Shown here piece by piece: positions 3,992 to 39,187 of a stretch of DNA of 64,000 nt. The DNA is taken from NCBI GenBank assembly GCA_003153295.1, contig PLXY01000006.1, positions 219,829-283,828 of the forward strand. The letters are read 5' to 3'. This stretch comes from Parachlamydiales bacterium (GTDB taxonomy: Bacteria > Chlamydiota > Chlamydiia > Chlamydiales > Rhabdochlamydiaceae). The translations under genes and the position numbers were made by a program. The first letter of the stretch is position 1. Each line of letters begins with the position of its first letter. The notes beneath the pieces were generated by a model that had not been told where the DNA came from, made no database searches, and worked only from the letters and a program-made list of their open reading frames with translations.

Positions 3992-5320
3992 TCATCTATT
4001 TAGAGGCTTTTGAACTATTTTAAAATAAATATAAGAGACGCTAATTCCCAGACCCACGAGTGTAAAATCTTGGAGGGAAGGAGAAAGAATTCTTTTTTTA
4101 ATCGAGCGAAAAAAGGAAAGAGCAAGCTTCTTCATCTTATGTAAAGTCAGAGTCCAGATCACTTGAATCCTTTTTTTGCTCTCAAATGCCCAAAAGAAAG
4201 TAAAAAAATTAGGATTAGCTCCGTGCTTGATTAACAATTTAATTTTTTCAACAGGAAGATAATCACTGCTTGCGGCCCCATCTATCACTTTCTTATACGC
4301 GAATGGTGAGAAGGCCGCGCGGGGGCTTACACAATAAGACAGATGGATATAGCCGTTTCTCTTTAATAATTCCTCACCAACTTCAAGAGATTTGCTTCTA
4401 TAAGCCCAAATATAGATGGAATTCAAGCCATACTCGTTAGCGTAATTGATCTCAGCTCCTCCATCAATAAACCTTTTAATTTGATTCCATGTCGCCTTTT
4501 CCCAATCTATCTTATGCAAAGCAGTGCGTCCCAAAGAATCAGTACAATCGATATCTGCACCTAGCTCTAGTAGTGCATTAAGCATTGCTTCCGAAGCGTT
4601 GCATATTTCACTTTGCGTATAGATATGGCCCTTAAAAGAAGCCGGAATCTTTGGCCCTTGACCTTCGCAGCGCAAAATTTTAAGCGTGGAAAACTGCTTA
4701 GGATCAATTTGATGAACTGGATGATGGGTATGGTTCTCATGCGTACAGTCACTGAAGTCCGCATGTTGTAAATTAGGACAAAAAGGAAAGTTTATAAATG
4801 ATGTATGAGCGAGGCTTAAGCTGATCAGGGACTTTGTACATGACAGTTCGGGAACAGGAAAAGAACCAATAAAACGAGACAGATCTAATTTTTCTAATTG
4901 AGAAAACCGACAAAGAACTGCGGCTAATTTCGGACGGTCTTCCTCTTTCGCGTAACCATAGCGGTAGCTAAGTTTTTTGAGATTTGCAGGCGCCGCAGCT
5001 AAAATAGAAAGGGCATAGCCCGTGTTAAATAAGCCATCTAAAGAAAGGTGGGTAAGATGATTGAAATCGCCCTCTTGTAAACCTATAACGAGTTTCTTGA
5101 TGTACCGCTCATCCGCATCAGATCCGACAGTAATGCGTAAATGAACGACGCGGCCTCTCCAAGCCTTGTGCCAGGTATTGTTGACGAGTGGGATTGCTTT
5201 TTCAAGAGGGCTAATGAAAGAAAGGATAAGCTTAAACAAATCCGTATAGTAATATTTCTGATTGTTGGGCAGATAAAAAGGTACTATTGTGGAGTGATGT
5301 GGCAGAGCTGTTAATGCCAT
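3992..5320 (-). CDS. eukaryote-like F-box / leucine-rich-repeat / ankyrin-repeat protein with a C-terminal TM segment (candidate effector)
   Basis: The N-terminal LFKLILSFISPLEKAIPLVNNTWHKAW resembles the F-box consensus. LRR-like units are present (LTHLSLDGL, LKKLSY, LEKLDLSRF, LISLSLAHT). ANK-like segments are present (LNALLELGADIDCTDSLGRTALHK, LLIKHGANPN). The hydrophobic C-terminus is FTLVGLGISVSYIYF. Confidence 0.6.
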   Translation of the reverse strand: MALTALPHHSTIVPFYLPNNQKYYYTDLFKLILSFISPLEKAIPLVNNTWHKAWRGRVVHLRITVGSDADERYIKKLVIGLQEGDFNHLTHLSLDGLFNTGYALSILAAAPANLKKLSYRYGYAKEEDRPKLAAVLCRFSQLEKLDLSRFIGSFPVPELSCTKSLISLSLAHTSFINFPFCPNLQHADFSDCTHENHTHHPVHQIDPKQFSTLKILRCEGQGPKIPASFKGHIYTQSEICNASEAMLNALLELGADIDCTDSLGRTALHKIDWEKATWNQIKRFIDGGAEINYANEYGLNSIYIWAYRSKSLEVGEELLKRNGYIHLSYCVSPRAAFSPFAYKKVIDGAASSDYLPVEKIKLLIKHGANPNFFTFFWAFESKKRIQVIWTLTLHKMKKLALSFFRSIKKRILSPSLQDFTLVGLGISVSYIYFKIVQKPLNR

Positions 5321-8279: not shown

Positions 8280-8519
8280 GCATCCTGCTTTTTTAAGCGT
8301 TCATTATTTACCAATAGGCGATTCTCTGAAAGTCCGTTTACATAACTTATCGTCATCTATTTCGATCAGTATAACGTTATGCCACCAGGAGATATTTAAA
8401 CAAAAATCAGGAAGAGTTTCTAATTGTCGCGCAGCTTGCGCGACAATTGCATAAGCTAGATAGAATGATCTCATGTAAAAGAAGTTAGATCTAGAAAATC
8501 TTTAGCTCTGGTAAAGCAT

Positions 8520-21543: not shown

Positions 21544-23001
21544 ATGGACAAGTCAATTATTGGCCGGGATGAAGAGCTTGCCATTCTTCGAGAAATCTAT
21601 GAATCGCCAGAACCCGAGTTTCTTGCGGTTTATGGCAGAAGAAGGATAGGCAAGACCTACTTGATCAGTGAGTTTTTCAAGAATAGAAGTGTTTATTTTG
21701 AAATCACAGGAATGAAAGAAGGCTCTACGCGTGAGCAGCTGTTCCAATTCGCTTATGAATTTGCAAGACAATTCAATGAAGGTAGAAGGATTCCTCCTCC
21801 GGAAAACTGGGCAGAGGCTTTGAATTTATTACACGAAGCTACTGAAAAAGTGGAAAAAGGAAAAAAGATCATCCTTTTCTTCGATGAGGTCCCATGGCTT
21901 GCTTCCCCGCGTTCTAAATTTCTAAATGCCCTAGAGCACTTCTGGAATCGTTATCTATCCCGAAACAAAAATGTGATTTTGATCATTTGTGGGTCATCTG
22001 CATCCTGGATCATTAGAAATATCATTAACAATAAAGGTGGATTGCACGGAAGGGTAACCAGAAAAATGCGCTTACTTCCCTTTGCTCTTTCGGAAACGGA
22101 AAAATATCTCAAATCTCGCCATATCGATTTAGACAGGAAACAGATCATTGATATCTATATGGCAATGGGAGGAGTTCCTAAATACCTTTCCTATATTGGA
22201 AGAGGTAAATCTGCAACCCAGATCATCAATGAAGTCTGTTTCACCCCAAAAGGAGGTCTGTATGATGAATTCGACAATCTCTACAAATCTCTTTTCGATA
22301 ACTACGAGCACCATATTTCCATCGTCAAGGCTCTTTCTAAGGAAAGCGGTGGTTTAACCAAGTCTGAGCTCTTGGATAAGGTAAAAATGTCCTCAGGCGG
22401 AGGTTCCACTAGGATTATTGATGAATTGATCGATGCCGGTTTTCTGATTTTTGTACCATCATTTCACAAAAAGAAAGCCGGAGGTATCTATCGACTTATC
22501 GATGAGTATTCTCTTTTTTATTTAACCTGGATCGCAGAAATTTCTAAGGTTAGCTTAGAAAGTGTCGATCCGGAATTTTGGATAAAAAAATACGATACAG
22601 CTAAATGGTATGCCTGGAGCGGCTGTGCTTTTGAATCTCTTTGCCTCAAGCATATTCAGAAGATCAAAAAAGCCCTGGGAATCTCAGGCATTAGTACTAT
22701 AGAATCCGGTTGGCGCTATATCCCTAAAAAAGCACCCGATCAACAGGGAGCGCAAATAGATCTTGTCATAGATCGAATGGACAAATGTATTAATCTCTGC
22801 GAAATGAAATATAGCGATAGAGAATTTGTTATTGATAAGCTATATGCGGAAAGATTACGCACGAAGAAGAAAGTATTTAAAGAACAGACAGCGACGCCTA
22901 AGACTCTGTTTACGACCATGGTCACAACTTATGGCGTAAAGAAGAACGCACATTATCTTTCGGTGATTGATAGTCAACTGACGATGGATGATCTTTTTTG
23001 A
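21544..23001 (+). CDS. AAA+ ATPase of the COG1672 type (Arch_ATPase plus DUF234-like C-terminus with a PD-(D/E)xK-like motif)
   Basis: Walker A VYGRRRIGKTYL and Walker B ILFFDEVPW. The C-terminal GAQIDLVIDRMDKCINLCEMKY fits D..ExK. It is a full-length paralogue of 33137-34594, with the same 485-aa length and the same MDDLF end. Confidence 0.85.
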   Translation: MDKSIIGRDEELAILREIYESPEPEFLAVYGRRRIGKTYLISEFFKNRSVYFEITGMKEGSTREQLFQFAYEFARQFNEGRRIPPPENWAEALNLLHEATEKVEKGKKIILFFDEVPWLASPRSKFLNALEHFWNRYLSRNKNVILIICGSSASWIIRNIINNKGGLHGRVTRKMRLLPFALSETEKYLKSRHIDLDRKQIIDIYMAMGGVPKYLSYIGRGKSATQIINEVCFTPKGGLYDEFDNLYKSLFDNYEHHISIVKALSKESGGLTKSELLDKVKMSSGGGSTRIIDELIDAGFLIFVPSFHKKKAGGIYRLIDEYSLFYLTWIAEISKVSLESVDPEFWIKKYDTAKWYAWSGCAFESLCLKHIQKIKKALGISGISTIESGWRYIPKKAPDQQGAQIDLVIDRMDKCINLCEMKYSDREFVIDKLYAERLRTKKKVFKEQTATPKTLFTTMVTTYGVKKNAHYLSVIDSQLTMDDLF

Positions 23002-25481: not shown

Positions 25482-26357
25482 TTATTCAAAAAACGCCTCA
25501 AGAAATCGACGATTAGTTTTATACAAAGCAGCGCTGCTACTTTTCCAGGTTCCTCGCTTCACTGTAAATCCAATGGTAGCAATTGTTCTGCTCAGCCTCA
25601 AGAGAGGCATCAATTCTTTGTAATGAGGCACAGGACGAATAGTGGCATAACCTTCTAAAAAAGATGTTCTGATCGTTGGGTGAGAAGACCATTCTCCGTT
25701 TTCCAGGGGACAAAAATCGTCTTCTGAAAAGCTAGCTCGCGCTGAAGACCAATCAATAATTCCCTGGATCTTACTGTTATTAATGATCAAATTCCCGGGA
25801 CGAAAATCGCGGTGTATAATACAGGGGCCGTCGACTGAATCCAGGAGATGGATATGAGCATTGTAGTAACTACGGCATTGATCAATCAACGTTTGAGGTA
25901 AATGAAGACTGCATTCATCCAACCCTTCTTCAAATTTCAAAGTAAAATGAACTCTCGGATCAGAGGTCAAACTTTCTGGCTGTATGAGGTCTCCATAGCC
26001 CGTCGTACGGTTAAGATGTATTTGCGCAAGTAGAGAACCTATTTCATAAGCTAGAGCATTTGTGAGATCTGTTTTTTTGAGCACTGTCCCTGGTAAACAC
26101 TCCAATAAAAGAGCGCCATGGACATTTGTTGTTGGTTCCACGAGCTGGACGATTCTTGGTACCGGCAATTTATTGGCAAAATATCTTAAGAAATAGACTT
26201 CACGTCGATAGTCATTGGGCCGTTCGCAGATTTTTATAATCAGCTCAACACCATCTGGTTGTGTGATCTTGTAGACAGTAGCAACGATTGCATCCTCATG
26301 TTCAATGCGGGAAAAGGTAGCATTCTGGAGATGAAAATGTTGTCGATAATAATTCAT
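25482..26357 (-). CDS. aminoglycoside/choline-kinase-family phosphotransferase
   Basis: Brenner motif IIHRDFRPGNLIINNSKIQGIIDWSSA. The start was chosen at the internal MNYYRQ to avoid a 49-nt overlap; the track ORF extends to 26414. Confidence 0.8.
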   Translation of the reverse strand: MNYYRQHFHLQNATFSRIEHEDAIVATVYKITQPDGVELIIKICERPNDYRREVYFLRYFANKLPVPRIVQLVEPTTNVHGALLLECLPGTVLKKTDLTNALAYEIGSLLAQIHLNRTTGYGDLIQPESLTSDPRVHFTLKFEEGLDECSLHLPQTLIDQCRSYYNAHIHLLDSVDGPCIIHRDFRPGNLIINNSKIQGIIDWSSARASFSEDDFCPLENGEWSSHPTIRTSFLEGYATIRPVPHYKELMPLLRLSRTIATIGFTVKRGTWKSSSAALYKTNRRFLEAFFE

Positions 26358-26365
26358 TTTTGCCT

Positions 26366-27202
26366 TTAGCAACGGCTTAGGGGTGAAATCATAAACGGCT
26401 TGACTCGAGGCCAATTTCCATGAATTAAGAGGTGGTCCTTGTCATAAAGATAAGGTTCCGCGCTGGCTGCATCTGTTAAACGATCGGGGGAAAAATAGAA
26501 GTAGATGTCATCAATCGGAGCCGGTAAATGATCAAGAATCAACTCAAGGGAAGGAATTTTGCTAGTAATAATGTCATAGAGATGCAAAGTCTTGTCCTCT
26601 ATTACATAAGAAATAAGGCCGTTAAGAGACGGACTGTAGTAAAGCGACCAGAAGGTAGGATAGGTAGCAAAAAGCGTATGAAAAGGAGCAATAGTGCCAT
26701 TGTCTTTCACCCATACATGATTAGACAGAGGTGCGCGATTGCCAAAACAGTCAAGAAAAAGAGGATTATCTTTTGGAGTAGAGAGGGGTATTAAAGATTG
26801 GGAACCTTTGGGTCGTTTACACGACAAATGAAACCTGTATTCCTGAACATTTTGAAAGGAAAGTTTTTCGTAAAATGAGGGAATTTTTGAGAATAGGATC
26901 ACAAATTCATATTCTTTTTGAGCCCATTTTAGAACTTCTTGAATCAATTCCGATGACAAGCCCTGACCGCGATGGGAAGCTTTCGTGCAGATAGCATGAA
27001 GAGCTCCAGTTTTGTGCCATCGGCCTTCGATCAATAGGGGATACTCTAAAAAACCAACATGAGAAAGAATTTTCCCTTTAGCTTCTTTGAAAAATGGCTT
27101 GGATTCCCAAGGAAATCCAACCGTATTGCAACGAATAATGTTGGACTTAAGACCTGGGAAGGATTCTTCAAGTAAATTTAAGTAGGCGTTTTGTTCAGTC
27201 AT
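26366..27202 (-). CDS. GNAT N-acetyltransferase (Eis-like two-domain layout)
   Basis: The acetyl-CoA motif is LHAICTKASHRGQGLSSELIQEVLKWAQ. An additional C-terminal domain of about 150 aa is present. Confidence 0.75.
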   Translation of the reverse strand: MTEQNAYLNLLEESFPGLKSNIIRCNTVGFPWESKPFFKEAKGKILSHVGFLEYPLLIEGRWHKTGALHAICTKASHRGQGLSSELIQEVLKWAQKEYEFVILFSKIPSFYEKLSFQNVQEYRFHLSCKRPKGSQSLIPLSTPKDNPLFLDCFGNRAPLSNHVWVKDNGTIAPFHTLFATYPTFWSLYYSPSLNGLISYVIEDKTLHLYDIITSKIPSLELILDHLPAPIDDIYFYFSPDRLTDAASAEPYLYDKDHLLIHGNWPRVKPFMISPLSRC

Positions 27203-27282
27203 GTCGAGTCATGAATAAGATCAGCGTCGATTATAAGTTTTGAGTCATGCAGTTGTCTAGAGATTTAGCTAGTTAAAAAAAT

Positions 27283-27325
27283 GGGACGGGCTGGGATTAA
27301 ACCACTGACCAACGGGTAATGAGTC
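27283..27325 (-). repeat. degenerate copy of the tRNA(CAU) 3' end (old att-like remnant)
   Basis: GGGACGGGCTGGGATTAAACCACTGACCAACGGGTAATGAGTC matches 37753-37795 at 37 of 43 positions, in the same orientation. Confidence 0.55.
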
Positions 27326-27628
27326 GCTTTTCCTTCCACACACCATCATAAGACAGAACACATAGGAATAGATAAATCAATAGTTTTGGAGCCACCATTT
27401 GTATTGTTTTGTGCCATTTTTGTTTTCCAGTCTAATGCCTAAAATTTGCGTAGAGCCATTGGGGATGATCCTGCTATAAAGAGTTATTCTTGAACGATCC
27501 CTAAGTGCTAACGTAGGGACAATGGATTCTTTTAATAATCGAGGAATGTCGATTACAGAATGTATATTTTGAGGACTGTAAAATTGTTGGGGCTGAGCTC
27601 TTTAATAGGGAAAAATTTGAGAGGCGTA

Positions 27629-28447
27629 ATGAGAATTTTTTTTTATTTTATGATTTTCATTTTGAGCTTATGCAGTTCTAAGGTGTCAGCGGATATAAGA
27701 GCTCTCATCCTGATTGTGGCATCTGATAATGAACCCATCTATGCAGAGTTTCAGAAAATTTGGCGATCATACATGCATTTAGATCCTGAGCATATCGAGG
27801 TGTATTTTGTAAAAGCGGATCCAAATTTATCTTCGAAGGTACAGATAGTCGGTGACACGATTTGGTGCCAAACAACTCAGGAGTATGATGGAATTATTCT
27901 GAAAACTCTTTATGCACTTGAGTCTATGTTACCCGCTGTCCTAAATAGATTCGATTATGTGTTGAGAACAAATTTATCCACATTTTGCATCTTTCCTAGA
28001 TTTTTAGATTATTTAAGAACACTACCTAAAACAGGTTGCTTCAGTGGAACTGGCCTAGACGCGGTCCTTGCTAGTGGAAATGGACTCATTTTCTCTTCCG
28101 ACATAGCTGAATTTTTGGTTGCAAATCAAGACAATGTGCTTAATCATATTCCATCTTATTTAGGGGATGACGGTCTCATCAGCGATTTTTTGTATAGCCG
28201 CGGCATCCGATTGATTCCCCACAAATTTATGTTGTGGGTACCCAATTTCAAAGAGTGGGAGAACATCAAGGTTTCAATCCCATCCAATATTTTCCAAGTG
28301 CGCGTTAGAACAGAAAACCGCATCCCAGATGATCAGATCATTCACTCAGATTTACTGCATATGTTCTATTTATCTAAGCAACTGCTTTTAGACCGACTCT
28401 TGCCTCTGCACAATCTCGGCACCGATCTTAGCCTTATCAGCTCTTGA
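27629..28447 (+). CDS. secreted/membrane-anchored hypothetical protein, weakly glycosyltransferase (Fringe/GT-A)-like
   Basis: N-terminal signal/anchor MRIFFYFMIFILSLCSS. FDYVLRTNLSTF and LGDDGLISDFL loosely recall GT-A galactosyltransferase motifs. The track ORF begins at 27560. Confidence 0.45.
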   Translation: MRIFFYFMIFILSLCSSKVSADIRALILIVASDNEPIYAEFQKIWRSYMHLDPEHIEVYFVKADPNLSSKVQIVGDTIWCQTTQEYDGIILKTLYALESMLPAVLNRFDYVLRTNLSTFCIFPRFLDYLRTLPKTGCFSGTGLDAVLASGNGLIFSSDIAEFLVANQDNVLNHIPSYLGDDGLISDFLYSRGIRLIPHKFMLWVPNFKEWENIKVSIPSNIFQVRVRTENRIPDDQIIHSDLLHMFYLSKQLLLDRLLPLHNLGTDLSLISS

Positions 28448-28737
28448 TTGACTGCTATTGCTGCTTTGACCTGCGCCCTTCGGATAGGGGTCTTGATGTT
28501 CACGAGAAAGGTGGGTTAGTTTTTTGGAATGATTAACGGGGCGGTGGTTTGGGGTTCGTGGAGCCCTATCGTTTTAGTTTTTCAGTAGGTAATGAATTCA
28601 AGCTCAAGCCCTCAAGCCCGAGGGGCCGCCTTCGCCTGAATGGATAGCTACAGCTAAGGTAAATTGCCATGCCTGTGCTGACGGCATTGCGTTGATAATT
28701 TAAGCCTTGCAACATCTTGCAAATCAATTAGTTGCCT

Positions 28738-28860
28738 ATCAACTCAGCGGAATCCCATATTTTTTTATAGATTCTGCAACTTTTAGCATAAAAGTTGCAG
28801 AATCTCACTTTTTTTGACACATTCTGCGAGTTTTATGCTAACAGCTGCAGAATCTTGCTT
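28738..28860. repeat. 50-bp-period tandem hairpin array (copy 1)
   Basis: GC(G/A)GAATC occurs at 28747, 28797 and 28847. (G/C)ATTCTGC occurs at 28770 and 28820. A perfect 17-bp-arm hairpin AGATTCTGCAACTTTTA-GCA-TAAAAGTTGCAGAATCT spans 28769-28805. About 92 bp are roughly 93 percent identical to 33016-33107. Confidence 0.8.
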
Positions 28861-28875
28861 CCCATATCATCAATT

Positions 28876-28926
28876 TGGGGCAGGGTGGGATTGAACCACC
28901 GACCAAAGGGTTATGAGTCCGCCGCT
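28876..28926 (-). repeat. 51-nt near-perfect direct repeat of the tRNA(CAU) 3' half (attR-like island boundary)
   Basis: TGGGGCAGGGTGGGATTGAACCACCGACCAAAGGGTTATGAGTCCGCCGCT equals 37752-37802 with a single C-to-A difference, in the same orientation. Confidence 0.8.
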
Positions 28927-29035
28927 TCATAAGGTTCTTTTCTAAGCAAGGAACTTGCCCATGCCGGTATCATTTGAATCGGTCTTCGCGTCTATTCAAA
29001 GAGGGTCAAGATAAGTTGGCTTATTTGACCTTTGA

Positions 29036-32000
29036 TTAGAAACGGAGGGCGACGACGAATCCAACATCTTGAGCCCAATATCTACTGCCTATTTCAGCAT
29101 CATAATAGATCAAGGCATCCACCATACCACAGGCGCGTTGATAGGTGAGGGCTAGACCTGGAGAGAACAAGTTGCGTTCGAAGTTCCTGCCTTTGCCTAA
29201 GAAGCTGCAGGTAGAGCTCACGAAGTTGGCATGGTAGTTCTTGCTAGAGCCTGGGGTTTGGTTGATGTATGCTAGTTTGAGTGTAGGAGCAAACACCCCT
29301 CTGCAACCACAGTATTTGGTGCTGATTAGAATTCCACCGTCCCCTTGGAAGAGTGTCCCATTTTTGGTCTTCACATGCAGGTCAAGGCTTTTAGCCCCTT
29401 TTTCGGTGTAGCTATCTTCATGCAGCCCTACATAATCTAGATTGATGTAAGGGGTCCATTGAAAGTTGCTTGAGCACACTTGATAGCCCACGCCGAAATT
29501 GGTCAGCCACTCATTCCCGCTGTGATGAGAGTGAGCATGTCTGTTGATCGTTCCGAAGTGGAGATGACGCGTGGTTCTATAGTTATTGTGTGCGCCGAGA
29601 AAAGCCGCGTTGATGTAAAAACCATCGTGATTCCAACGACCGTATAATCCTCCGTAGAAGCTGTTAACGTTAGCTTTGCCGTAAGATTGTTGCCAATGGA
29701 ACATATCGTGGGTATAGCTGAAGGCAGCTCCTAGAACCAAGTGATGAATGCGGTAATCGGCACCGATCGTAGCACCGACAGTGGTGTCGTTATATCCAAA
29801 GAGGTTATGTGATTTGTTTTGATGTTGCCATTGTCCGGTAATATCGCTCCAGAAGCTAATGGTCCTCCCACAGCACCAATCTTCGTTTAATCGAAGCTCT
29901 TGCATGTGTTTGGTATAGGTGGAACGGACGAGGATGGCATCGAGCAGCTGAACCTGAGAAATGTCAGAGAGCTGCGCAGGCCCCATTTGCCCGAAAGCTT
30001 TCTGGATATCGTCGAAACTTAGCCCAATCAATACAGCATTCACAGCAGTTGTATCGGATCCAGCGGGAGCGGTGATATAGCAGCTCGCAGCTTTCTTGGC
30101 GTTGCCTTTGAGGCTGAGAGAATCGAATGGCAAATAAATCAGTTGGACGGTCAAAGGATCATAGATCAAGCTCATGAGAGCGGGGACGGTGCTTGTTAGC
30201 GAAGAGAATGTTCCTGAAACACCCGTGCCAGTGCTGATGATAGTATAGGTGAGTGGAGTTGTGAAGCCAAGGTCATCAGGAGTAACAACGACGCTACCGC
30301 CAATCTGAGCAGATCCGGAAGCGATAATCTGATCGCTACTCCCTGAGGAGTTGACTTCAACATTATAGACACTTGTAGAGCCTAGCAAGAGATCAGTGGT
30401 ATGGACGGTGCCGATGGAATTGCCTGGCGAGATTGTCCCACTGCTACTGATGTTTCCGCTGACTGTGGCGTTGCCCGATAGTGTGCCGGCAGATTCAATA
30501 GACAAATCTCCGACAACGGATCCATTCAGATTAAGAGTTCCCGATTGGACTGTGGTGCCCCCGACATATGTATTATTCCCGTTCAGGCTGACGGTCCCGG
30601 TGCCGGTTGTCAGTAATCCAGGGCTTGAGATGAAAGATCCAGCTCCGCAAATGGGATTAGTAATGGTAAATGTTCCGTTGATCTGTAAGGTTAAGTTGCC
30701 CCCCGATTGGATAAAAATATCATTTCCAAGAGATGATCCGTTTCCTCCATTAAATCCGCTTGTGGCCGTGCCTCCGATCCCAGCAGTCGTCGAGTTACCG
30801 GAAAAATTTGTGCCGTCTTGAATGATGAGAACGGCGCCTGTTTGAATATAGATGGCCCCTCCAAGTCCGGAACCTCCTCCTCCGCCCGCTGACAGTCCTG
30901 CTCCCGAACCGCCGGATCCGCCGAGCCCATTGGGATCTATTCCACCCGTGCTGCCGCCACCTCCTCCCGCTCCAAAACCTCCATTGCCGCCAGTGGTACT
31001 AGAAGAAGCTCCTCCGCCTCCGCCGAGAGATCCCCCATTCCCCCCAGGACCAAGGTATCCGCCGCCGCCGCCGCTTGCCCCATCGCCTGCGCCTCCTCCT
31101 CCGTAACCTCCGCCGGGGCCGCCGACGCCGTAAGTGTTATTTGCACCGAAGCCAAGGCCGCCATGGCCACCTATACCAGGAGGAGGGGCACTAGATCCAG
31201 CGCTACCACCCCCACTAGAACCACCGCCTCCGCCGCCACCTCCACCTTCCGTGGTAGTCCCCGCGCCACCCGGACCACCCGATGTGGCAGGCATAGCTGC
31301 ATTGGAACCTCCAGCTCCCGCTGGGTGAGCGGGAGTGGTGCCGACCCCTGCGCCTCCGCCGCCAGCGCCTCCGTAGTTTTGGAACGTGTTGGGAGAACCC
31401 GCATGGTTTCCCGTTGTGGCTCCAATGGTTCCACCGGCATTGCCACCGCCTCCGCCGCCAGCACCATTAGTTGCGCTTGCTGAACCGCCGCCGCCGCCGC
31501 CGAAGCCTCCACCACCGCCACCGGAGGTGCCAGCGGCGTGGCCAGCTCCCCCAGCGCCGCCGCTGGCTTGGTTGGTATTGAGAGCCACAGTAGAGATAGT
31601 CATGACGGTACCTTCGTGTACGTAGAGAGCGCCGCCCCCGCCAGTGCCTCCGCCTCCGCTGGTGAAGCCAGATCCACCAGGACCACCTTGCGAAAGACCA
31701 TTCTGAATAGTGAGGTCAGAAATAGTTGCCGAGCCTTGGCCCAACGAGAAAACTGGATGAGCACTACCCCCATCGATGGTCACGCCGTAGCCAAGAATAG
31801 TCAGCGTTGATGAATTTTTTCCTATAGCCGGCAGGGGAGTTGATAAGGAGATTGTTTCTCCGGCGATCATTGAGCAGTCGATGATGGTGTCATCTACTAC
31901 GACGTTTTGAAGAGCGAGATTCAGCGAGCCGCTGGTACCGCCATCGTTGTCAGTGACATAAATGGTGGTAGATCCGTAGATCAATGGGTTTTCGATAGTG

Positions 32001-32059
32001 AAAGCAAAGAGAAGCTGCCACAAGAATGCAGGGAACTTTTTCATGGATTTACGAAACAC
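29036..32059 (-). CDS. autotransporter / polymorphic-membrane-protein-like adhesin with an extreme glycine-rich passenger
   Basis: Signal peptide MKKFPAFLWQLLFAFT. Pmp-like GGAI/FxxN elements are present (GGAIYIQTG, NFSGNST). About 270 aa are GGxGG low complexity. The C-terminal beta-barrel domain (..FSYTHD..YGGLYGRW..NFGVGYQV..) ends in the aromatic ALRF. Confidence 0.85.
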   Translation of the reverse strand: MFRKSMKKFPAFLWQLLFAFTIENPLIYGSTTIYVTDNDGGTSGSLNLALQNVVVDDTIIDCSMIAGETISLSTPLPAIGKNSSTLTILGYGVTIDGGSAHPVFSLGQGSATISDLTIQNGLSQGGPGGSGFTSGGGGTGGGGALYVHEGTVMTISTVALNTNQASGGAGGAGHAAGTSGGGGGGFGGGGGGSASATNGAGGGGGGNAGGTIGATTGNHAGSPNTFQNYGGAGGGGAGVGTTPAHPAGAGGSNAAMPATSGGPGGAGTTTEGGGGGGGGGSSGGGSAGSSAPPPGIGGHGGLGFGANNTYGVGGPGGGYGGGGAGDGASGGGGGYLGPGGNGGSLGGGGGASSSTTGGNGGFGAGGGGGSTGGIDPNGLGGSGGSGAGLSAGGGGGSGLGGAIYIQTGAVLIIQDGTNFSGNSTTAGIGGTATSGFNGGNGSSLGNDIFIQSGGNLTLQINGTFTITNPICGAGSFISSPGLLTTGTGTVSLNGNNTYVGGTTVQSGTLNLNGSVVGDLSIESAGTLSGNATVSGNISSSGTISPGNSIGTVHTTDLLLGSTSVYNVEVNSSGSSDQIIASGSAQIGGSVVVTPDDLGFTTPLTYTIISTGTGVSGTFSSLTSTVPALMSLIYDPLTVQLIYLPFDSLSLKGNAKKAASCYITAPAGSDTTAVNAVLIGLSFDDIQKAFGQMGPAQLSDISQVQLLDAILVRSTYTKHMQELRLNEDWCCGRTISFWSDITGQWQHQNKSHNLFGYNDTTVGATIGADYRIHHLVLGAAFSYTHDMFHWQQSYGKANVNSFYGGLYGRWNHDGFYINAAFLGAHNNYRTTRHLHFGTINRHAHSHHSGNEWLTNFGVGYQVCSSNFQWTPYINLDYVGLHEDSYTEKGAKSLDLHVKTKNGTLFQGDGGILISTKYCGCRGVFAPTLKLAYINQTPGSSKNYHANFVSSTCSFLGKGRNFERNLFSPGLALTYQRACGMVDALIYYDAEIGSRYWAQDVGFVVALRF

Positions 32060-32310
32060 AAATGGTCACCAAATTAGTCGCAGAAAAGGGAAAACATTTT
32101 AACTGCACACTAACAAGAGATAACATGAAAAACAATTTTTTTTTAAATACTCTCTTGAATATCAACTCAGCGGAATCTCGGTTTTTTACTTACTTTCCTC
32201 TGGGTTTGAGATCGCATTTTATTTAGACCAGAATGGGGGCTAGTTAAGGATTCTTGAAGATAAAAACATTAGGAAACAAATGAAAGCTTTTCTACATTTG
32301 AATCCTCATA

Positions 32311-32961
32311 ATGGAGGATACAATGAAGCAAGTCATAAAAGGTATGATCTTTCTACTTATGGTATTGGTCTGTCGTCAAGGGGTAGCAAATGGCAACAAA
32401 CAAGAAAAAATCAGTTGGAAGTTATTCCAAGTTGACGAGAGAGCCGTTCTCATCAGTAATGATCATGAGATATGGTTATTACATGGATTACAACCCAATA
32501 AGCTAACCTGGAGTGAATGGGTATGGAGAGAAGATGTACCACAACCGGATGCTTGCTATTTTTTCAATATGGAAAAATGGGAAGAAGGCAAGAAGATCTC
32601 TATTGTTTATTTTCCTTGGCAAGATTGCGCGTGGAAAGACACCTATCGCAATGATGCTTCTTTATTGCAACGCTGTGATTATGTGATCGAAAATGATGCT
32701 TGCAAGACTCGTGTTTTTGCAAAACCAGTTCAGATAGATGAAGTGAAGTCACTGTATGCTAATCTTCGTGAACGTGCGTCCGACCTAGTAAGGAGAGGCT
32801 TTTTCGGGCATGCAGCAGGACTACTTGAACAGGAACTTGTGTTTATCAACTTCAAAGAGAAAGTCTTAACAGAATGTAAAAATAAAATGGAAAGAAAGCC
32901 TTTTGATGGGCAATATACGGCATTTTATGAAAAACATGGACCTTTCGACCAGATAAATTGA
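32311..32961 (+). CDS. secreted hypothetical protein (Trp/Cys-rich)
   Basis: Signal peptide MKQVIKGMIFLLMVLVCRQGVANG. I recognise no family. The start may be at 32323. Confidence 0.5.
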   Translation: MEDTMKQVIKGMIFLLMVLVCRQGVANGNKQEKISWKLFQVDERAVLISNDHEIWLLHGLQPNKLTWSEWVWREDVPQPDACYFFNMEKWEEGKKISIVYFPWQDCAWKDTYRNDASLLQRCDYVIENDACKTRVFAKPVQIDEVKSLYANLRERASDLVRRGFFGHAAGLLEQELVFINFKEKVLTECKNKMERKPFDGQYTAFYEKHGPFDQIN

Positions 32962-32992
32962 AGAAAAAAATTCTGAGTTTTTTGCTTAAGCT

Positions 32993-33124
32993 AGCGGAAT
33001 CTCACACCTTTCCAGAGATTCTGCAACTTTTATGCTAAAAGCTGCAGAATCCCACTTTTTTTGACAGATTCTGCGAGTTTTATGCTAAAAGCTGCAGAAT
33101 CTTGCTTTTAATTCCCGATTCTGC
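32993..33124. repeat. 50-bp-period tandem hairpin array (copy 2), ending 12 nt before the ATPase ATG
   Basis: GC(G/A)GAATC occurs at 32994, 33044 and 33094. GATTCTGC occurs at 33017, 33067 and 33117, with exact 50-bp spacing. The hairpins are AGATTCTGCAACTTTTA-TGC-TAAAAGCTGCAGAATC and ATTCTGCGAGTTTTA..TAAAAGCTGCAGAAT. Confidence 0.8.
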
Positions 33125-33136
33125 GAGATTTAAAGG

Positions 33137-34594
33137 ATGAATACAAAAAATCCGGTTTTTGCCCGAAAGCGGGAACTCAAGATACTCCAACAACTCTATG
33201 ATTCAGGAAAACCTGAATTTCTAGCTATTTATGGCCGCAGGCGGATAGGGAAAACCTTTCTTATTCGGGAGTTTTTCAAACATAAAGGGCTCTATTTTGC
33301 TCTCACAGGAGTCAAAGAGGCCAGTGTGAAAAAGCAGCTCAAAAACTTTACAGCAGAATTTACCAGGGTATTTGGCCGGTCGGAAGATGATGAACCCTTA
33401 AAGAATTGGTTTGAGGCCTTTGCACAATTGAGAAAAGCACTAGAGACAGTGAAAGGACCTGAAAGGATTATCCTCTTTTTTGATGAACTGCCGTGGTTAG
33501 CGACTCCCCGTTCGGGATTTCTTCAAGATCTTGACCATTTCTGGAACCGCTATCTCTCGGAAGATAATCGAGTGGTCCTCGTCGTATGTGGATCAGCAGC
33601 GTCATGGATGATCAGAAAAATCGTCCGTAATAAGGGAGGGCTCTATGGACGTCTGACCGCCCAGATTCGCCTTCTACCCTTCGATCTAAAAGAGACAGAA
33701 GAATATCTGCGACATCAAGGAATGACCTTAAATCGCAAGGCCATTGTCGATATTTACATGGCAATCGGTGGAATTCCTAAGTATCTCAGTTATATCCAAA
33801 AAGGCCAGTCAGCCATGCAAATTGTCGGCCAGCTTTGTTTTGATGGACCTCTTGCAGAGGAGTTTGACGAGCTTTATGCATCCCTTTTTGAGCGCCACCA
33901 TCGTCATGTTAACATCATCAAGGCTCTGGCAGAACATCATGGAGGCTTGATGAAGTCCCAGATTGCTAAAGCAACTGGCCTCTCAACAGGAGGCGGGATG
34001 AATATAGTCTTGGAAGAACTTGAGCAATCGGGATTTATTCTTGCGATCAAAGATTTTGGCAAACAAAAGAAAGAAAGCCGTTATCGCTTGATTGACGAAT
34101 ACTCTTTGTTTTATCTCAAGTGGGGACAAAAAGCTAAAGAAAGTAATTTGAGAACCCAGGATGATATGTTTTGGGTAAATGTCTTCAACAGCCCGCTGGG
34201 TCAGGCCTGGGCAGGTTATGCTTTTGAAATGTTATGCCTTAAACATCTCTCCAAAATTAAAGAAGCTCTGGGCATCGCAGGTGTTTTGACAAATGCTTCA
34301 GGATGGATTTATAGGCCCTCGAAAGAAAGTCATGAAAGAGGGGTGCAAATCGACCTGCTTATCGATCGTGCAGATAACTGCATTAATCTCTGCGAGATTA
34401 AATACCGCAATGAAGAATTCACTATCAACAAAGCCTATGACAAAGAATTGAGAGAAAAAAAGGCTATTTTTCTAACGCAGACCAAAAGTAAAAAAAGCGT
34501 TTTTATCACGCTGATTTCCCCATATGGAGTCAAAAAAAACGTAGGTCATTTTGGGACTGCTGAGGTGACTTTGACCATGGATGATCTTTTTTAA
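33137..34594 (+). CDS. AAA+ ATPase of the COG1672 type (paralogue of 21544-23001)
   Basis: IYGRRRIGKTFL, ILFFDELPW, C-terminal GVQIDLLIDRADNCINLCEIKY. 485 aa, collinear with the paralogue. Confidence 0.85.
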   Translation: MNTKNPVFARKRELKILQQLYDSGKPEFLAIYGRRRIGKTFLIREFFKHKGLYFALTGVKEASVKKQLKNFTAEFTRVFGRSEDDEPLKNWFEAFAQLRKALETVKGPERIILFFDELPWLATPRSGFLQDLDHFWNRYLSEDNRVVLVVCGSAASWMIRKIVRNKGGLYGRLTAQIRLLPFDLKETEEYLRHQGMTLNRKAIVDIYMAIGGIPKYLSYIQKGQSAMQIVGQLCFDGPLAEEFDELYASLFERHHRHVNIIKALAEHHGGLMKSQIAKATGLSTGGGMNIVLEELEQSGFILAIKDFGKQKKESRYRLIDEYSLFYLKWGQKAKESNLRTQDDMFWVNVFNSPLGQAWAGYAFEMLCLKHLSKIKEALGIAGVLTNASGWIYRPSKESHERGVQIDLLIDRADNCINLCEIKYRNEEFTINKAYDKELREKKAIFLTQTKSKKSVFITLISPYGVKKNVGHFGTAEVTLTMDDLF

Positions 34595-34865
34595 TTTCAT
34601 AGATTGATGTCATCGGCTTCCTGTCATCTAACAATCTTTGACCCCATCCACCAATGGAGTTCGATCAGCTCTTGTTGATAGACATCGCTGCTGAATCCAA
34701 ATTGCTTTTAATCAGGCCTAAGGGTTGGGAGTCTGCACTCTAACCAATTTTTAGCAGCCCATCTTAAAATGTTACGTTTGAGCGATTTTATTAAGATGCT
34801 TACTAGTAGGAAAGAATGCAGGAAAAAAACAATAGACTTTGTTAGAGACTTATCCCTCTGCAAAA

Positions 34866-35627
34866 CTACTCTATTGTTTCCTTACTTTTTATTCCTATGC
34901 CTCCAAGAGGATTGCCATAATCTTGGTATGTCGAAAGAAAAAGAAGGTTATATATGACCTTTGCAAGGTAATCAATGTAGAGTTGTACTTCTTCCCATTC
35001 CGGTTGATAAGTTGGATTTTCGAGATCAACGTGAGCTGCAATCTGATCTCTATAAGCGTTTATAATTTTTCTTTTCTCAAACAAAGCATTTTTAATTTCT
35101 ACAAAATTTTCTGGGCGTGGTTGCCCTTGTTCATTTAAACCAAATTTAAAAAATTCTTTTGTAAGTTGTTTGTATCGAATTAAATGAGTAGAGTATAAGT
35201 TTTTGTGAACCGAATTAGTATTATTGGATACCTCTACAAGTTTCTCTAAAGGTGTTTTTTTAAATAGACATGTGTATTTAGAGTTGATTGAATTAATCAG
35301 AGATAAGGTTTTATCTGTGATATCAGAAAGAGAAATGGGAATAAATTTGCATAGATCTTCAAATAGCATCATAAGAGAAATATTTCGCACTGATATATTT
35401 GGTAAGCTTTGTGCGACAATGGCAAGTATTTGAAATTTATGCTTCACTATATCGAGGGGATCCAAAATCTCGATCTTTATTTTATTAGAAAACTCTTCTC
35501 GCAATAAATAATGCACGTCAAGATTGTCTATAATAAATTTGGTATGTTCTTCCTTGAGTAAGGGACGTTTAGATCCGTTGAACAGCCATTCAATCTTTCC
35601 ATTAAGAAATGGGGGTAAAGTTTTCAT
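34866..35627 (-). CDS. hypothetical protein with an Rx5H motif, candidate HEPN (AbiU2/Abi-like) RNase
   Basis: ...EKRKIINAYRDQIAAHVDLENP... fits the HEPN Rx4-6H signature in the R[DN]xxxAH form seen in Abi-type HEPN families. The gene starts 22 nt after the AbiEii stop on the same strand and is AT-rich. Confidence 0.45.
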   Translation of the reverse strand: MKTLPPFLNGKIEWLFNGSKRPLLKEEHTKFIIDNLDVHYLLREEFSNKIKIEILDPLDIVKHKFQILAIVAQSLPNISVRNISLMMLFEDLCKFIPISLSDITDKTLSLINSINSKYTCLFKKTPLEKLVEVSNNTNSVHKNLYSTHLIRYKQLTKEFFKFGLNEQGQPRPENFVEIKNALFEKRKIINAYRDQIAAHVDLENPTYQPEWEEVQLYIDYLAKVIYNLLFLSTYQDYGNPLGGIGIKSKETIE

Positions 35628-35649
35628 TTTTTTAACTCTTATGCTCTCT

Positions 35650-37002
35650 TCAATCGAAGGTATTATAGGGATGTTTTATCTTAGCAACATCAACTATTCT
35701 TTTTCTCATTTTTGGAGGCAATTCTCCTATAGGTTGAAACCAAAAATATAGGGTTCCTACTGCATCTATTCTATTGTTCCAGTCATTAAGAAAATAACCT
35801 GGCACTAGAAAAATCTCACCTAATTGTGCCTTGTCTAATTTTGTGTATGTACGATTGTAATCTTGACTATTATAGGTAACAAATCCTCTCCCAGAGTCTC
35901 CATGAACATAAAACAAAACCACTTCATAAATTTTGTTGTGATCATATTGCGCTTGCCATTTTTTAGAAACTGTCTCGAAAATTAAAGGCTGACATAAGTG
36001 ATCTTCAGAACTATTGAGTTCATTCGCTTCCTGATGAGTTAATTTTACAAGTCGACTTTTATATAACTTAAAATGCCCTAATGTCAGGTAAACATATTGG
36101 GCACAGTTTTGATCCATTGATGGAGCGGTTTCAGAAGTGCACAATTGTGTGTTATATATCAACCACACATTGATTGCAGAAATAACATCCTTGATGGACT
36201 CTGGGAGTAAAGTGGTCATTTGACTACTAGAAAGATCTTGTAGATAGTCCTCCCATAACGGTTGCAGCACACTTATGTATTCATTGTCAAATTGCAACGG
36301 TAATTTCTGAAGTGAAGTTTGTCTATGGTTAAAGACAGTCACTACGACCTTGTCAATATAATTTGTTTTTAAACATCCTTGTAATGAAATAAGCGTATAG
36401 AGATCATGAAAATCCTTCATTCGGGTATTTCCAATGCCACGCTGAATAACAGTTTCAAGTTTCTCTGCAAAAATGAACTCCTTTGGATAAGAAAGTACTT
36501 GAATTTTGCTTTCAAATAAGGGGCCTTTTGAGGTTGATATCAAATCCAGTGAATAATCAATTGCTTCTACTACATCTCCAAAACCCAAATCAATCTGAAG
36601 ATGAGTTTGTGGTCCACCGAGGTTCGCCAATAGTAAGACTCTTATACCATTGTAGGCCATGTGCGGATGCGTAAGTTTGCCAATTTTCACTTTTTCAAAA
36701 ACAAAACCGTCATCAAGATGAATATTGCAAATGTCATCAAATGCAATGCTCAAAAGCTCTTCTGTATTTTTCAGTCTTTCAACTAGAAAGTCTAAATCTT
36801 TTGTTTCTCGTCCTATAGGGATATATCTAGCTAAGAGCGATCCGCCTTTTAAAATGAAGTTTTGCTTGTATTGGGACTGACAAAGACGAGCTAAAAATCT
36901 TTCCAAAATCAAACTATGCCAAATTTCGTCATAAGTCAAGTTACGTGTTCTTGCAACAGCACGTAGACGTTCTTTTATAGATTGCTTTAAAGAATTTTTC
37001 AT
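35650..37002 (-). CDS. AbiEii/AbiGii-family nucleotidyltransferase toxin with an extra C-terminal domain of about 150 aa
   Basis: Pol-beta NTase motifs are FILKGGSLLARYI, TKDLDFLV and RMKDFHDLYTL. At 450 aa it is longer than the roughly 250-330 aa typical of the family. I do not recognise the tail (..VVLFYVHGDSGRGFVTYNSQDYNR..). Confidence 0.8.
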   Translation of the reverse strand: MKNSLKQSIKERLRAVARTRNLTYDEIWHSLILERFLARLCQSQYKQNFILKGGSLLARYIPIGRETKDLDFLVERLKNTEELLSIAFDDICNIHLDDGFVFEKVKIGKLTHPHMAYNGIRVLLLANLGGPQTHLQIDLGFGDVVEAIDYSLDLISTSKGPLFESKIQVLSYPKEFIFAEKLETVIQRGIGNTRMKDFHDLYTLISLQGCLKTNYIDKVVVTVFNHRQTSLQKLPLQFDNEYISVLQPLWEDYLQDLSSSQMTTLLPESIKDVISAINVWLIYNTQLCTSETAPSMDQNCAQYVYLTLGHFKLYKSRLVKLTHQEANELNSSEDHLCQPLIFETVSKKWQAQYDHNKIYEVVLFYVHGDSGRGFVTYNSQDYNRTYTKLDKAQLGEIFLVPGYFLNDWNNRIDAVGTLYFWFQPIGELPPKMRKRIVDVAKIKHPYNTFD

Positions 37003-37595
37003 GTTGTTAGCGCCATTATGTACGGGTGGATATCTACCCGAAGCAACTTAGCATACTTCATAAGCTTATTGAGATTGGGTTTATCAGAGTTTTCTTGATC
37101 TAGATAGGCTTGTAGAGCCTTGATTGCCACCTCACGGCTAAGATAACGAAAGGCATCGACAACTGTTCTTTCTTTATCAAAAATTTTTAGACAATGAGTG
37201 GCTATTTGAATTTTTGTTTGACCTAGATCAATGTTGCGCATTCGAATGATTCGTGTTTTGAATCTTTGAGGACTCTTTAATGCATGTGGAATGGCGATCC
37301 AAAATTCTCTCATTATTTGATCTGTTAGACCATAATAGCAGAGAGCTGAAATTAGACAGATTACACCATTTGGTATGCTCATCGCTATCAAAGCAAGATC
37401 TTCCCACTGAAAAGCGATGTTTATTTTTGCTTGTAAACCCTTATAGACGCCTCGGGCTATCCGTTCTATCATGCCTTTTTTGCAAAAATGAGAAAGCATG
37501 CGGGAAGGAATACCAGCATGTCGCGCCTCAGCAGCAGTGAAAACTGGTGTTTCCACAAAAACTTGAATCAGAGCAGCATATTTGGATGAAGACAT
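36999..37595 (-). CDS. AbiEi-family type IV antitoxin / transcriptional regulator
   Basis: The N-terminal winged-helix segment is VFTAAEARHAGIPSRMLSHFCKKGMIERIARGVYKG. Its stop overlaps the AbiEii start by 4 nt (ATGA-type coupling). Confidence 0.8.
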   Translation of the reverse strand: MSSSKYAALIQVFVETPVFTAAEARHAGIPSRMLSHFCKKGMIERIARGVYKGLQAKINIAFQWEDLALIAMSIPNGVICLISALCYYGLTDQIMREFWIAIPHALKSPQRFKTRIIRMRNIDLGQTKIQIATHCLKIFDKERTVVDAFRYLSREVAIKALQAYLDQENSDKPNLNKLMKYAKLLRVDIHPYIMALTT

Positions 37596-37611
37596 ATCTT
37601 ATATGTAACAT

Positions 37612-37640
37612 AAGCACCCAAAAAAAGCAATTGGGTGCTT
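37612..37640. promoter_or_regulatory. 10-bp-arm inverted repeat upstream of abiEi (candidate autoregulatory operator)
   Basis: AAGCACCCAA-N9-TTGGGTGCTT lies 17 nt upstream of the AbiEi start codon. AbiEi proteins are known to repress their own promoters through inverted repeats. Confidence 0.35.
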
Positions 37641-37751
37641 GAATTACATAATTAGTTCTCTGAACTTGCTGTTTTTGAGCTATTTAAGGGTGATACTACA
37701 AATCAGGACAATCGTTTATTTTCGAAGGGTATTGTTAATAGAAAATAAACT

Positions 37752-37824
37752 TGGGGCAGGGTGGGATTGAACCACCGACCAACGGGTTATGAGTCCGCCG
37801 CTCTAACCACTGAGCTACTGCCCC
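37752..37824 (-). tRNA. tRNA with a CAU anticodon (Met, or Ile2 if lysidine-modified)
   Basis: The reverse complement GGGGCAGTAGCTCAGTGGTTAGAGCGGCGGACTCATAACCCGTTGGTCGGTGGTTCAATCCCACCCTGCCCCA folds as a cloverleaf: a 7-bp acceptor, D-arm GCTC/GAGC, anticodon loop CTCATAA and T-arm GGTGG/CCACC. The body resembles tRNA-Ile2. Confidence 0.9.
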
Positions 37825-37981: not shown

Positions 37982-39187
37982 ATGTCTCGAGGCCTCACAA
38001 TTCTCGCTAGTCTTTGTTTCTTAAGCCTCTGGGCCTCAGAGTCTGAAGAAGATGCAATCGTTAAGGTCGATCCGGAGCTCTCTGTCATTAAACGTGGGGA
38101 TAGTTTGCCGGTGGATACCTTCGAGCATGCGACCGATCCTTATTTAGAAGGATACATCCAAGCTTTAATCGACTCGAGCTACTACGAATATAACGTGATC
38201 GTGGTCGTGAAAGACCATCGGGTTACCCTTTACAATCTTCCGAAAAACGACCTGGTGGCTAAGAGTATTATTTCTTACGTGCAAGATCTTCCGGGGGTCA
38301 CTTCTGTTGAAGCTAAAAAAGCATTGACGAAGGAAGAGGTGCAATCGAGAAAGGGGTACACGGAAGCTCCCAGAGTCTCAGGAGTATGGTTCCCGCAGAC
38401 AACGGTATTATTTTTACCTTTGATTGCAGATCCTAGAGAACCAGTTTATTCTGTGAACTGGAGGTGGGGCGACAAAGTTATCGGAAAAAGCACGATAGCT
38501 GTTTCTTTGGGTGATGACTTCCCTATTTTCCGCTGGCATGATGTGTTCAGATGGCATGGGGATCTGCAGATTGGAGTTCAAGCCGGAGTCTGGACCGTCT
38601 TTAATTTTACTGATGTACCAGATCACAAGCATAATATGTGCGAGCTGATGAACACCGACTATTTAGTCGGTATTCCGCTTTCGTATGCCTTTGATAAATG
38701 GTCATTCCGCACAAGGATCTATCACATTTCAGGCCACTTAGGCGATGAGGTGTTATGCCATCGGGACCATTTAGTCAAAGGTCGCAAAAATCCGAGTTTT
38801 GAAGCTTTTGATTGGATATCGTCTTATCAATTTTCCAGTGGATTAAGACTTTACGCAGGTCCGGGAGTTGTCTTTCAGAGCGATGACAGTTTTATCTTAA
38901 AACCTCTGTATGCCATCTGGGGGATGGAAGTTAGGCTTTTGGGACAGAAGCTCAATTATCACAGACTTTTTGGAACTCCTTTCTTTGCAGCGAATATGGA
39001 AAACTGGCAGGAACATCATTGGGATCTCGATCTGACCTTGAAGTTGGGGTATGAGTTCAGTAAATTGCAAGGTGTGGGCCGGAAAATGCGCCTTTATCTG
39101 CAATACCATCAAGGGTACTCTTACGAAGGGCAATTCTTTAAACATCAAGTCAAGTACGGCGAAATCGGATTCTCTTGGGGATTCTAA
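37982..39187 (+). CDS. outer-membrane protein with an N-terminal BON domain and a DUF1207-like beta-barrel
   Basis: Signal peptide MSRGLTILASLCFLSLWA. A BON-like segment is present (YLEGYIQALID...VTLYNLPKNDLVAKSIISYVQDLPGVTSVEA). FLPLIADPREPVYSV is as in DUF1207. The C-terminal residue is F. Confidence 0.6.
   Translation: MSRGLTILASLCFLSLWASESEEDAIVKVDPELSVIKRGDSLPVDTFEHATDPYLEGYIQALIDSSYYEYNVIVVVKDHRVTLYNLPKNDLVAKSIISYVQDLPGVTSVEAKKALTKEEVQSRKGYTEAPRVSGVWFPQTTVLFLPLIADPREPVYSVNWRWGDKVIGKSTIAVSLGDDFPIFRWHDVFRWHGDLQIGVQAGVWTVFNFTDVPDHKHNMCELMNTDYLVGIPLSYAFDKWSFRTRIYHISGHLGDEVLCHRDHLVKGRKNPSFEAFDWISSYQFSSGLRLYAGPGVVFQSDDSFILKPLYAIWGMEVRLLGQKLNYHRLFGTPFFAANMENWQEHHWDLDLTLKLGYEFSKLQGVGRKMRLYLQYHQGYSYEGQFFKHQVKYGEIGFSWGF

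Follow-up and report, generated by a model that had tools for sequence, protein, structure and literature searches.

A probable decayed tandem array of integrative islands, since reshaped, behind a tRNA(CAU) gene of an environmental chlamydia

Tyrosine integrases that target tRNA and transfer-messenger RNA (tmRNA) genes reportedly fall into sublocation classes, a scheme attributed to Williams (Nucleic Acids Res 2002), in which a block of identity that extends from the anticodon stem to the 3' end is said to characterize integrases with crossover in the anticodon arm. Tandem accretion behind one RNA gene has been described in Dehalococcoides, in which the 3' end of the essential single-copy ssrA gene recurs as same-orientation repeats no more than about 100 kb downstream; these islands are strain-specific, and some of them, which have no integration module, are regarded as either fixed or cis-mobilizable (PMC3146451). 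In the tycheposons of Prochlorococcus, new elements push older ones further in, and degenerate integrases and partial tRNAs are scattered among them (bioRxiv 10.1101/2020.12.28.424599). Cis-mobilizable elements (CIMEs) are flanked by attachment (att) sites and encode neither integration nor transfer functions (PMC5704250). Among chlamydiae, Protochlamydia amoebophila has a 100-kb genomic island that carries an F-like conjugation system (Greub et al. 2004, cited in PMC2878342), while our literature search found no paper on chlamydial tRNA(CAU) islands. Here we describe a tRNA(CAU) gene and two partial copies of it in a 64,000-nucleotide (nt) stretch of DNA, hereafter the window, which corresponds to C10:219829-283828 (contig PLXY01000006.1) in a genome of 2.26 Mb and 12 contigs; the organism's genus comprises uncultured environmental Chlamydiota. 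The region behind this gene is very probably a decayed tandem array of integrative islands that has since been reshaped.

The intact gene and its two partial copies, designated frag2 and frag3, are listed in Table 1 with the other features of the locus. A BLAST search of the whole genome with the 73-nt tRNA retrieved frag2 with an E-value of 8.5e-21. Together with formal alignment, the search confirmed the coordinates and mismatch counts that an earlier note on this DNA had given for the tRNA(CAU) and its two 3' copies, both of which have the orientation of the tRNA strand. The likeness of frag2 to the tRNA extends as far as 28869, and the two have a common T-stem variant (GGTGG/CCACC) that is absent from other members of the genus; frag3 is decayed, with its T-stem pairs disrupted. 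The flanks of the copies are unrelated, the likeness ending at most about 7 nt beyond the tRNA 3' end and at the truncation point, and thus the copies are not segmental duplications. There are four tRNA(CAU) copies in the genome, all the fragments beginning at tRNA positions 23-30 and lacking the 5' part, and beyond the window copies the search found a single 45-nt fragment at C9:143252-143296. Because this is the one additional copy, a dispersed repeat family, which the earlier note had named among the findings that would speak against integration, is ruled out. The orphan fragment on C9 adjoins tRNA-Thr(CGU), and its T arm (AAGTCCAGGTTGCCCCA) is the variant of integrase-bearing islands in other chlamydiae, not the host's own.

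Three CAU tRNAs were found in the genome, one with the three anticodon-stem G-C pairs of an initiator, one resembling an elongator tRNA-Met, and the third being the window gene. The lysidine synthetase TilS is present (166.8 bits against a cut-off of 93.6), and ARAGORN found no tRNA-Ile(UAU) in the genome. By elimination, the window gene is therefore probably tRNA-Ile2, the lysidine-modified isoleucine tRNA, and a single-copy essential gene. A Smith-Waterman scan of 57 kb detected no further att scar above noise to the left of 27282. The best non-scar match in these 57 kb, a tRNA-like stretch at 34721-34760 on the minus strand and a candidate for a third, strongly decayed remnant, lies at a break in G + C content with a local alignment score of 25-26, which is only marginally above shuffled sequence (mean 12.9, standard deviation 2.1, maximum 23), and it covers D-loop bases outside the att block. 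A weak tRNA-like match near 8.5 kb was rejected, as it lies inside an Ada/MGMT coding region.

Table 1. Features of the window around the tRNA(CAU) gene and its partial copies (aa, amino acids; att, attachment site)
Feature	Positions	Strand	Remarks
Remainder of variable zone	1-27281		APH/GNAT/TipA-MerR genes, PDC-S27 paralog, Ada/Tag repair genes, MFS transporter, others
att scar frag3	27282-27325	-	44 nt, tRNA positions 30-73, 38/44 identical (86%), 6 mismatches
295-aa gene	27560-28447	+	sole intact gene between frag3 and frag2
DUF1016/YhcG PDDEXK nuclease pseudogene piece	28394-28554	-	residues 3-58, in-frame stop and frameshift
Hairpin-repeat block D2L	28746-28860		8 nt from frag2
att scar frag2	28876-28926	-	51 nt, tRNA positions 23-73, 50/51 identical
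GrpB-GNAT fusion gene relic	28942-28983	-	last 13 codons and stop
Autotransporter, 1007 aa	29036-32059	-	PF03797 E 1.4e-44; TIGR01414 also matches
216-aa gene, function not assigned	32311-32961	+	
Hairpin-repeat block D2R	32993-33157		directly upstream of PDC-S27 ATPase gene, overlapping its start
ATPase_2/DUF234 ATPase	33137-34594	+	PADLOC candidate defense family PDC-S27, E 1.6e-182
DUF1016 nuclease pseudogene piece 2	34612-34677	-	residues 38-59, with stop
253-aa gene, third in line with AbiE pair	34866-35627	-	
AbiEii nucleotidyltransferase toxin	35650-37002	-	PF08843 E 8e-34; PADLOC AbiEii E 1.1e-67
AbiEi antitoxin/regulator	36999-37595	-	PF13338; PADLOC AbiEi E 7.5e-86
Intact tRNA(CAU)	37752-37824	-	ARAGORN and Rfam (69.6 bits); attachment target
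DUF1207 gene	37982-39187	+	conserved core flank, divergent from tRNA

The same tRNA gene is used by islands in related chlamydiae. The junction between tRNA and DUF1207, in divergent arrangement, is kept in all 11 relative loci examined, while the content 3' of the tRNA was different in every species, and 3' fragments of this tRNA occur in no fewer than 7 of 19 species in the genus, beginning at about tRNA positions 24-30 as compared with 23 and 30 in the window. In one member of the genus (G016), the tRNA is followed after about 180 nt, on the same strand, by the start of a 352-aa tyrosine integrase. The 17-kb island there ends in a fragment of positions 24-73 and also contains a second integrase, AbiE, a TOTE-type primase-helicase, an FRG-domain protein, and a TLC transporter. 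We searched public genomes with an alignment of the G016 integrase and its relatives and found many chlamydial homologs with 81-92% identity to it. Among the integrase loci recovered from public chlamydial genomes, a full tRNA(CAU) ends about 165 nt upstream of the integrase in 14, and 12 others carry a 3' fragment only, in the same relative place; the latter are inner members of arrays. Two complete chromosomes of metagenome-assembled genomes display such arrays in full, with five same-strand fragments behind the tRNA over 111 kb in one (G031; OY970323.1, 858783-970107) and six over 106 kb in the other (G032; OY970364.1, 165062-271653), and both arrays also hold several integrases. Between genomes that share only 40-68% identity in the adjacent DUF1207, the integrase retains 82-93%. 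Being far more alike than the core gene next to it, it appears to have spread horizontally, as this comparison of sequences indicates. These results support the view that tRNA(CAU) is a hot spot of integration, both in this genus and outside it. The integrase beside the same tRNA in relatives likewise supports the proposal of the earlier note that site-specific integration into the tRNA's 3' part, which served as target more than once, left the repeats behind as att scars.

The mechanism that we propose follows from the anatomy of the locus and from established knowledge of tRNA-targeting tyrosine integrases. An island integrase would recombine the att site of the island (attP), which would hold a copy of the tRNA of about 46-51 nt from the anticodon stem to the 3' end, with the tRNA gene. 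Integration would restore an intact tRNA from the island copy, and the 3' part that it displaces would end up as a direct repeat at the far end of the island, so that each new island would shift the older ones outward. In the window, two scars would remain of this process, the integrase genes having presumably been lost, and the material between the scars would have been altered by deletion or replacement. That this material was reshaped is argued by the truncated GrpB-GNAT gene at 28984, the DUF1016 pieces, and the duplicated hairpin block. The present cargo, namely AbiE with its third gene, the PDC-S27 ATPase, the autotransporter, and two unassigned genes, would thus be a fixed mosaic with no mobility of its own, and the scarred 10.5 kb would be the tRNA-proximal, recognizable part of a flexible zone of about 40 kb.

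No integrase is encoded at this locus today. A Pfam PF00589 search of the genome located four tyrosine recombinases, none of them in the window, and tblastn of the genome with both G016 integrases found neither an integrase gene nor a remnant of one in the window, which bears out what the earlier note had seen. The rest of the genome, in which that note had proposed a search for integrases of this tRNA specificity, contains as closest matches two enzymes with only 52% and 47% identity to the cognate type. These serve the genome's own tRNA-Leu(UAA) and tmRNA islands, which also bear repeated att scars. With no cognate integrase in the genome, the description of the islands as immobilized is a reasonable reading. 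As repeated scars occur at other tRNA and tmRNA islands, serial accretion is a habit of this genome. At the tRNA-Leu(UAA) array (C12:80796-93600), a 57-nt perfect repeat lies 9.6 kb away and a 33-nt copy 3 kb further (C12:90457 and C12:93568), with the integrase at C12:82687-83781. The tmRNA array (C10:162150-173519) has two 3' fragments 10-11 kb away (C10:162150 and C10:163134) and an integrase at C10:165219-166289, and a DUF1016 pseudogene lies just past its last fragment. Smaller islets are found at tRNA-Tyr, tRNA-Phe, and tRNA-Leu(CAA). That at tRNA-Tyr (C10:66604-68943) is a 2.2-kb islet between the tRNA and a 50-nt copy of its 3' end, and it contains mainly an intact DUF1016/YhcG PDDEXK nuclease gene.

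The history of the scars could be followed in a close relative, L113, which was found by an exact-pattern scan of metagenome contigs with the species-specific 3' half of the window's tRNA. The comparison covers 5.8 kb of its 28.9-kb contig (Ga0182024_10005333), in which the tRNA is identical to that of the window at 73 of 73 positions and the DUF1207 protein is 83% identical. The order in L113 is tRNA, an intact 310-aa GrpB-GNAT gene, an ortholog of frag2, the hairpin-repeat block, and a homolog of the 32311-32961 gene. The frag2 ortholog (1813-1863) starts at tRNA position 23, is identical to the tRNA at 45 of 51 positions, and lies 1.1 kb from it; the 8.8-kb cargo of the window is absent between the two. 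The nucleotide alignment of the window with L113 is contiguous from 28707 to 28983 across the hairpin block, frag2, and the GrpB-GNAT relic, the last of which is identical to the C-terminus of the L113 protein at 11 of 13 residues (tblastn). The homology stops at 28984, which is a breakpoint and not an att site. The homolog of the 32311-32961 gene is 84% identical and stands on the opposite, outer side of the frag2 ortholog. Since frag2 is orthologous to the L113 fragment, it would be older than the split of the two organisms, and the alignments suggest that it first closed a 1.1-kb islet. The present 8.8 kb, which consists of three G + C blocks (0.53 in the autotransporter, 0.40 in the middle, and 0.35 in the AbiE module), appears to have been installed after frag2, by events that destroyed the GrpB-GNAT gene at 28984. 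The motif AAAACGTG recurs several times in intergenic DNA of L113 at 1480-1570 and 2870-2900, on both sides of the islet.

The breakpoint and the order in L113 raise the question of whether 28746-33157, which comprises D2L, frag2, the relic, the autotransporter, the 32311-32961 gene, and D2R, arose with no integrase at all, by tandem duplication or by homologous recombination with a circular or sister copy at the hairpin block. The position of frag2 would then reflect duplication or recombination and not ordered integrations. The segment is bracketed by 115-nt direct repeats, D2L and D2R being 88% identical, and in the genome, the relatives, and the integrase loci the D2 block was found only at these two sites and in L113. 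Circular permutation of the segment yields the order seen in L113 (32311-32961 homolog, hairpin block, fragment, GrpB-GNAT end), and the junction between the autotransporter and the gene relic is the expected product of a tandem duplication. However, the duplicate would need further replacements on either side, in L113 the sequence left of the 32311-32961 homolog is not an autotransporter, and one integration followed by one deletion is a simpler path to the same junction. As scars made by an integrase would still be needed initially, we consider an integrase-free origin unlikely, although not far-fetched.

A different possibility is that the segments are still mobile as cis-mobilizable elements, which an incoming island of the same family could excise in trans by way of the tRNA 3' part and frag2. 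Such mobilization has been proposed for the integrase-less tandem islands of Dehalococcoides (PMC3146451) and for CIMEs generally (PMC5704250); the att pair here is nearly intact at 50 of 51 positions (98%), and cognate integrases are widespread among chlamydiae. Weighed against the apparent age of frag2 and a genome that has no cognate integrase, mobility at present seems to us improbable.

The earlier note had favored a clean two-step history, in which 28927-37751 is one young island with the 51-nt copy as its own attR and 27326-28875 is one older remnant. This is too simple. It accommodates the positions of the copies, their graded decay (one mismatch versus six), and the T-stem variant that the tRNA and frag2 have in common and other genus members do not. 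In L113, though, the frag2 ortholog bounds a different islet, of 1.1 kb, whose gene survives as a relic inside the supposed young island and ends at the 28984 breakpoint, and the 32311-32961 gene stands on the other side of the fragment; moreover, the 8.8 kb is a mosaic of three G + C blocks and includes one of the DUF1016 pseudogene pieces, that at 34612-34677. We regard the two-step history as quite improbable. That the copies are decayed tRNA pseudogenes or dispersed repeats unrelated to integration is barely credible, because beyond the similarity itself nothing favors it, whereas the genome has four copies only, its fragments start at positions 23-30 with no 5' part, and the same truncation point lies beside integrases in 12 loci of other genomes.

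Several observations weigh against the interpretation that we prefer, a decayed and reshaped array of islands. Integration at this site would have to be read from the scars and from the relatives, as neither an integrase nor an excisionase was seen for the window's own elements. The earlier note had looked to relatives for an empty site; L113 indeed has none of the 8.8-kb cargo, but no relative has an exact empty site with the tRNA directly joined to the 27.2-kb flank. Comparison of the flanks of all three copies with the relatives' loci and the integrase loci gave one match only, a DUF1016 pseudogene, and the nucleotide flanks of frag3 match nothing in either set. An exact 33-nt flank pattern had no match in metagenome contigs, and searches with the window's DUF1207 protein or the L113 homolog of the 32311-32961 gene found no same-species assembly. 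The break at 28984 and the duplication of D2L and D2R show that at least one step was not mediated by att sites. Frag2 differs from the tRNA by 1 nt and its L113 ortholog from its own tRNA by 6, an asymmetry that could reflect gene conversion or more recent recombination at frag2. A compositional break, which had been anticipated at the proposed boundaries, exists at the tRNA, where the AbiE block with a G + C content of 0.352 meets the core flank at 0.459, but no clear break occurs at the two inner scars.

The cargo was annotated by matches to Pfam, NCBIfam, and PADLOC, which confirmed the abortive infection/toxin-antitoxin module and the ATPase that the earlier note had recognized, as AbiEi, AbiEii, and an ATPase_2/DUF234 ATPase. 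The two AbiE genes are adjacent with a 4-nt overlap (36999-37002), as the AbiE type IV toxin-antitoxin gene pair requires, and AbiEi occupies the place where relatives have the integrase. Homologs of the 253-aa gene (72-74% identical) stand divergently beside a second, intB-type integrase in the islands of L060, L064, and L065 (about 2050-2825), an integrase about 56% identical to the tRNA-adjacent type, and one of these homologs has a weak match to HEPN_AbiU2 (E 0.003). The PDC-S27 ATPase has a paralog with 52% identity at 21544-23001, outside the scars. About seven paralogs of this ATPase type are present in the genome (in the window and on C7, C5, C8, and C10), and both window genes are preceded by a long palindromic hairpin block, each its own. 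The autotransporter has a glycine-rich, GC-rich passenger domain and about a dozen distant paralogs in the genome. Its description as Pmp-like is unsupported, since at E ≤ 0.01 it matched only the PF03797 beta-barrel domain in Pfam and not the Chlamydia Pmp repeat (Chlam_PMP). The DUF1016 pieces were found by tblastn with an intact gene (Pfam YhcG_C, DUF1016_N) that is island cargo in the integrase-bearing island of L055. The 295-aa gene has no match in Pfam, NCBIfam, or PADLOC and is patchily distributed, being present in 12 of 150 further genomes from the order and absent from all six that were sampled from its own family.

Behind the tRNA, the variable zone extends past the oldest scar to about 40 kb. 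From the conserved backbone (C10, about 199-217.8 kb) to the tRNA, the distance is 39.8 kb here and, in the same orientation, 8.4 kb in G002 and 10.3 kb in G006; in these two genomes, tRNA fragments are absent and the variable DNA amounts to only 8-10 kb. To the left of the oldest scar, the zone has a G + C content of 0.416 compared with 0.459 in the core, and several of the genes there, including the APH gene at 25482-26414, have homologs within 3 kb of island integrases in other chlamydiae. In view of the low G + C content, the accessory genes, and these homologs, the APH/GNAT cluster beyond the oldest repeat probably derives from earlier islands, the scars of which have since eroded. In L042 and L043, a homolog of this APH-family kinase (4120-4990; 54% identical) directly follows the tRNA(CAU)-specific integrase. 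Beside the Tag glycosylase gene, at 8361-8498 on the minus strand, is a third DUF1016 pseudogene piece, which covers residues 83-128 and has 76% identity to the L055 gene.

A decayed island array would explain the origin of the defense and accessory block at this locus (AbiE, the PDC-S27 ATPase, the autotransporter, and probably the APH/GNAT cluster) and also its fixed position. Obligate intracellular chlamydiae are often believed to exchange few genes. In many environmental chlamydial genomes, this essential tRNA is the target of a single conserved integrase lineage, with arrays of up to 111 kb, and the locus would be a convenient marker for horizontal transfer and defense-gene turnover in the phylum. 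More broadly, this tRNA(CAU), for which tRNA-Ile2 is the probable identity, may act throughout the phylum, in environmental Chlamydiota, as the landing pad of one integrase lineage, which has built defense and accessory arrays of more than 100 kb in complete chromosomes. We put this forward tentatively, as a proposal that could fall either way. If it is true, active and recent island traffic would take place between divergent obligate intracellular bacteria, and the integrase-less islets of the window would be material that newcomers can still remobilize in trans.

Among the systems with which the locus can be compared, the P. amoebophila island is also chlamydial, but it carries conjugation genes, and none were seen in the window or in the 17-kb G016 island. 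Tycheposons resemble the locus in that newcomers displace older elements and partial tRNAs are left, although the integrase family and the host are different. Like a CIME, the window element is flanked by att sites and has no integration functions, while its inner att scar appears ancient. The ssrA islands of Dehalococcoides similarly have several same-orientation 3'-end repeats behind one essential RNA gene and include integrase-less islands. They differ in using a tmRNA, a 20-bp repeat, and a serine recombinase, where a tRNA, a 46-51-nt repeat, and a tyrosine integrase are involved here, and their cargo is reductive dehalogenases and not defense and accessory genes. Compared with tRNA islands of tyrosine integrases, the elements of the window have no integrase and their content is partly replaced; an integrase inside the element next to the tRNA is seen in G016 and 14 further loci, and an exact empty site is the other hallmark missing here. 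The locus has an intact tRNA at its boundary, a same-orientation repeat from the anticodon stem to the 3' end at the other end, presence and absence of material at a conserved site, and, in relatives, an integrase beside the tRNA. With two certain att copies in the same orientation downstream of one target, it also has the at least two that mark a tandem array. The observation is real, and the tandem accretion at a tRNA and subsequent decay that it records are a textbook principle, while its fine structure is a reshaped mosaic.

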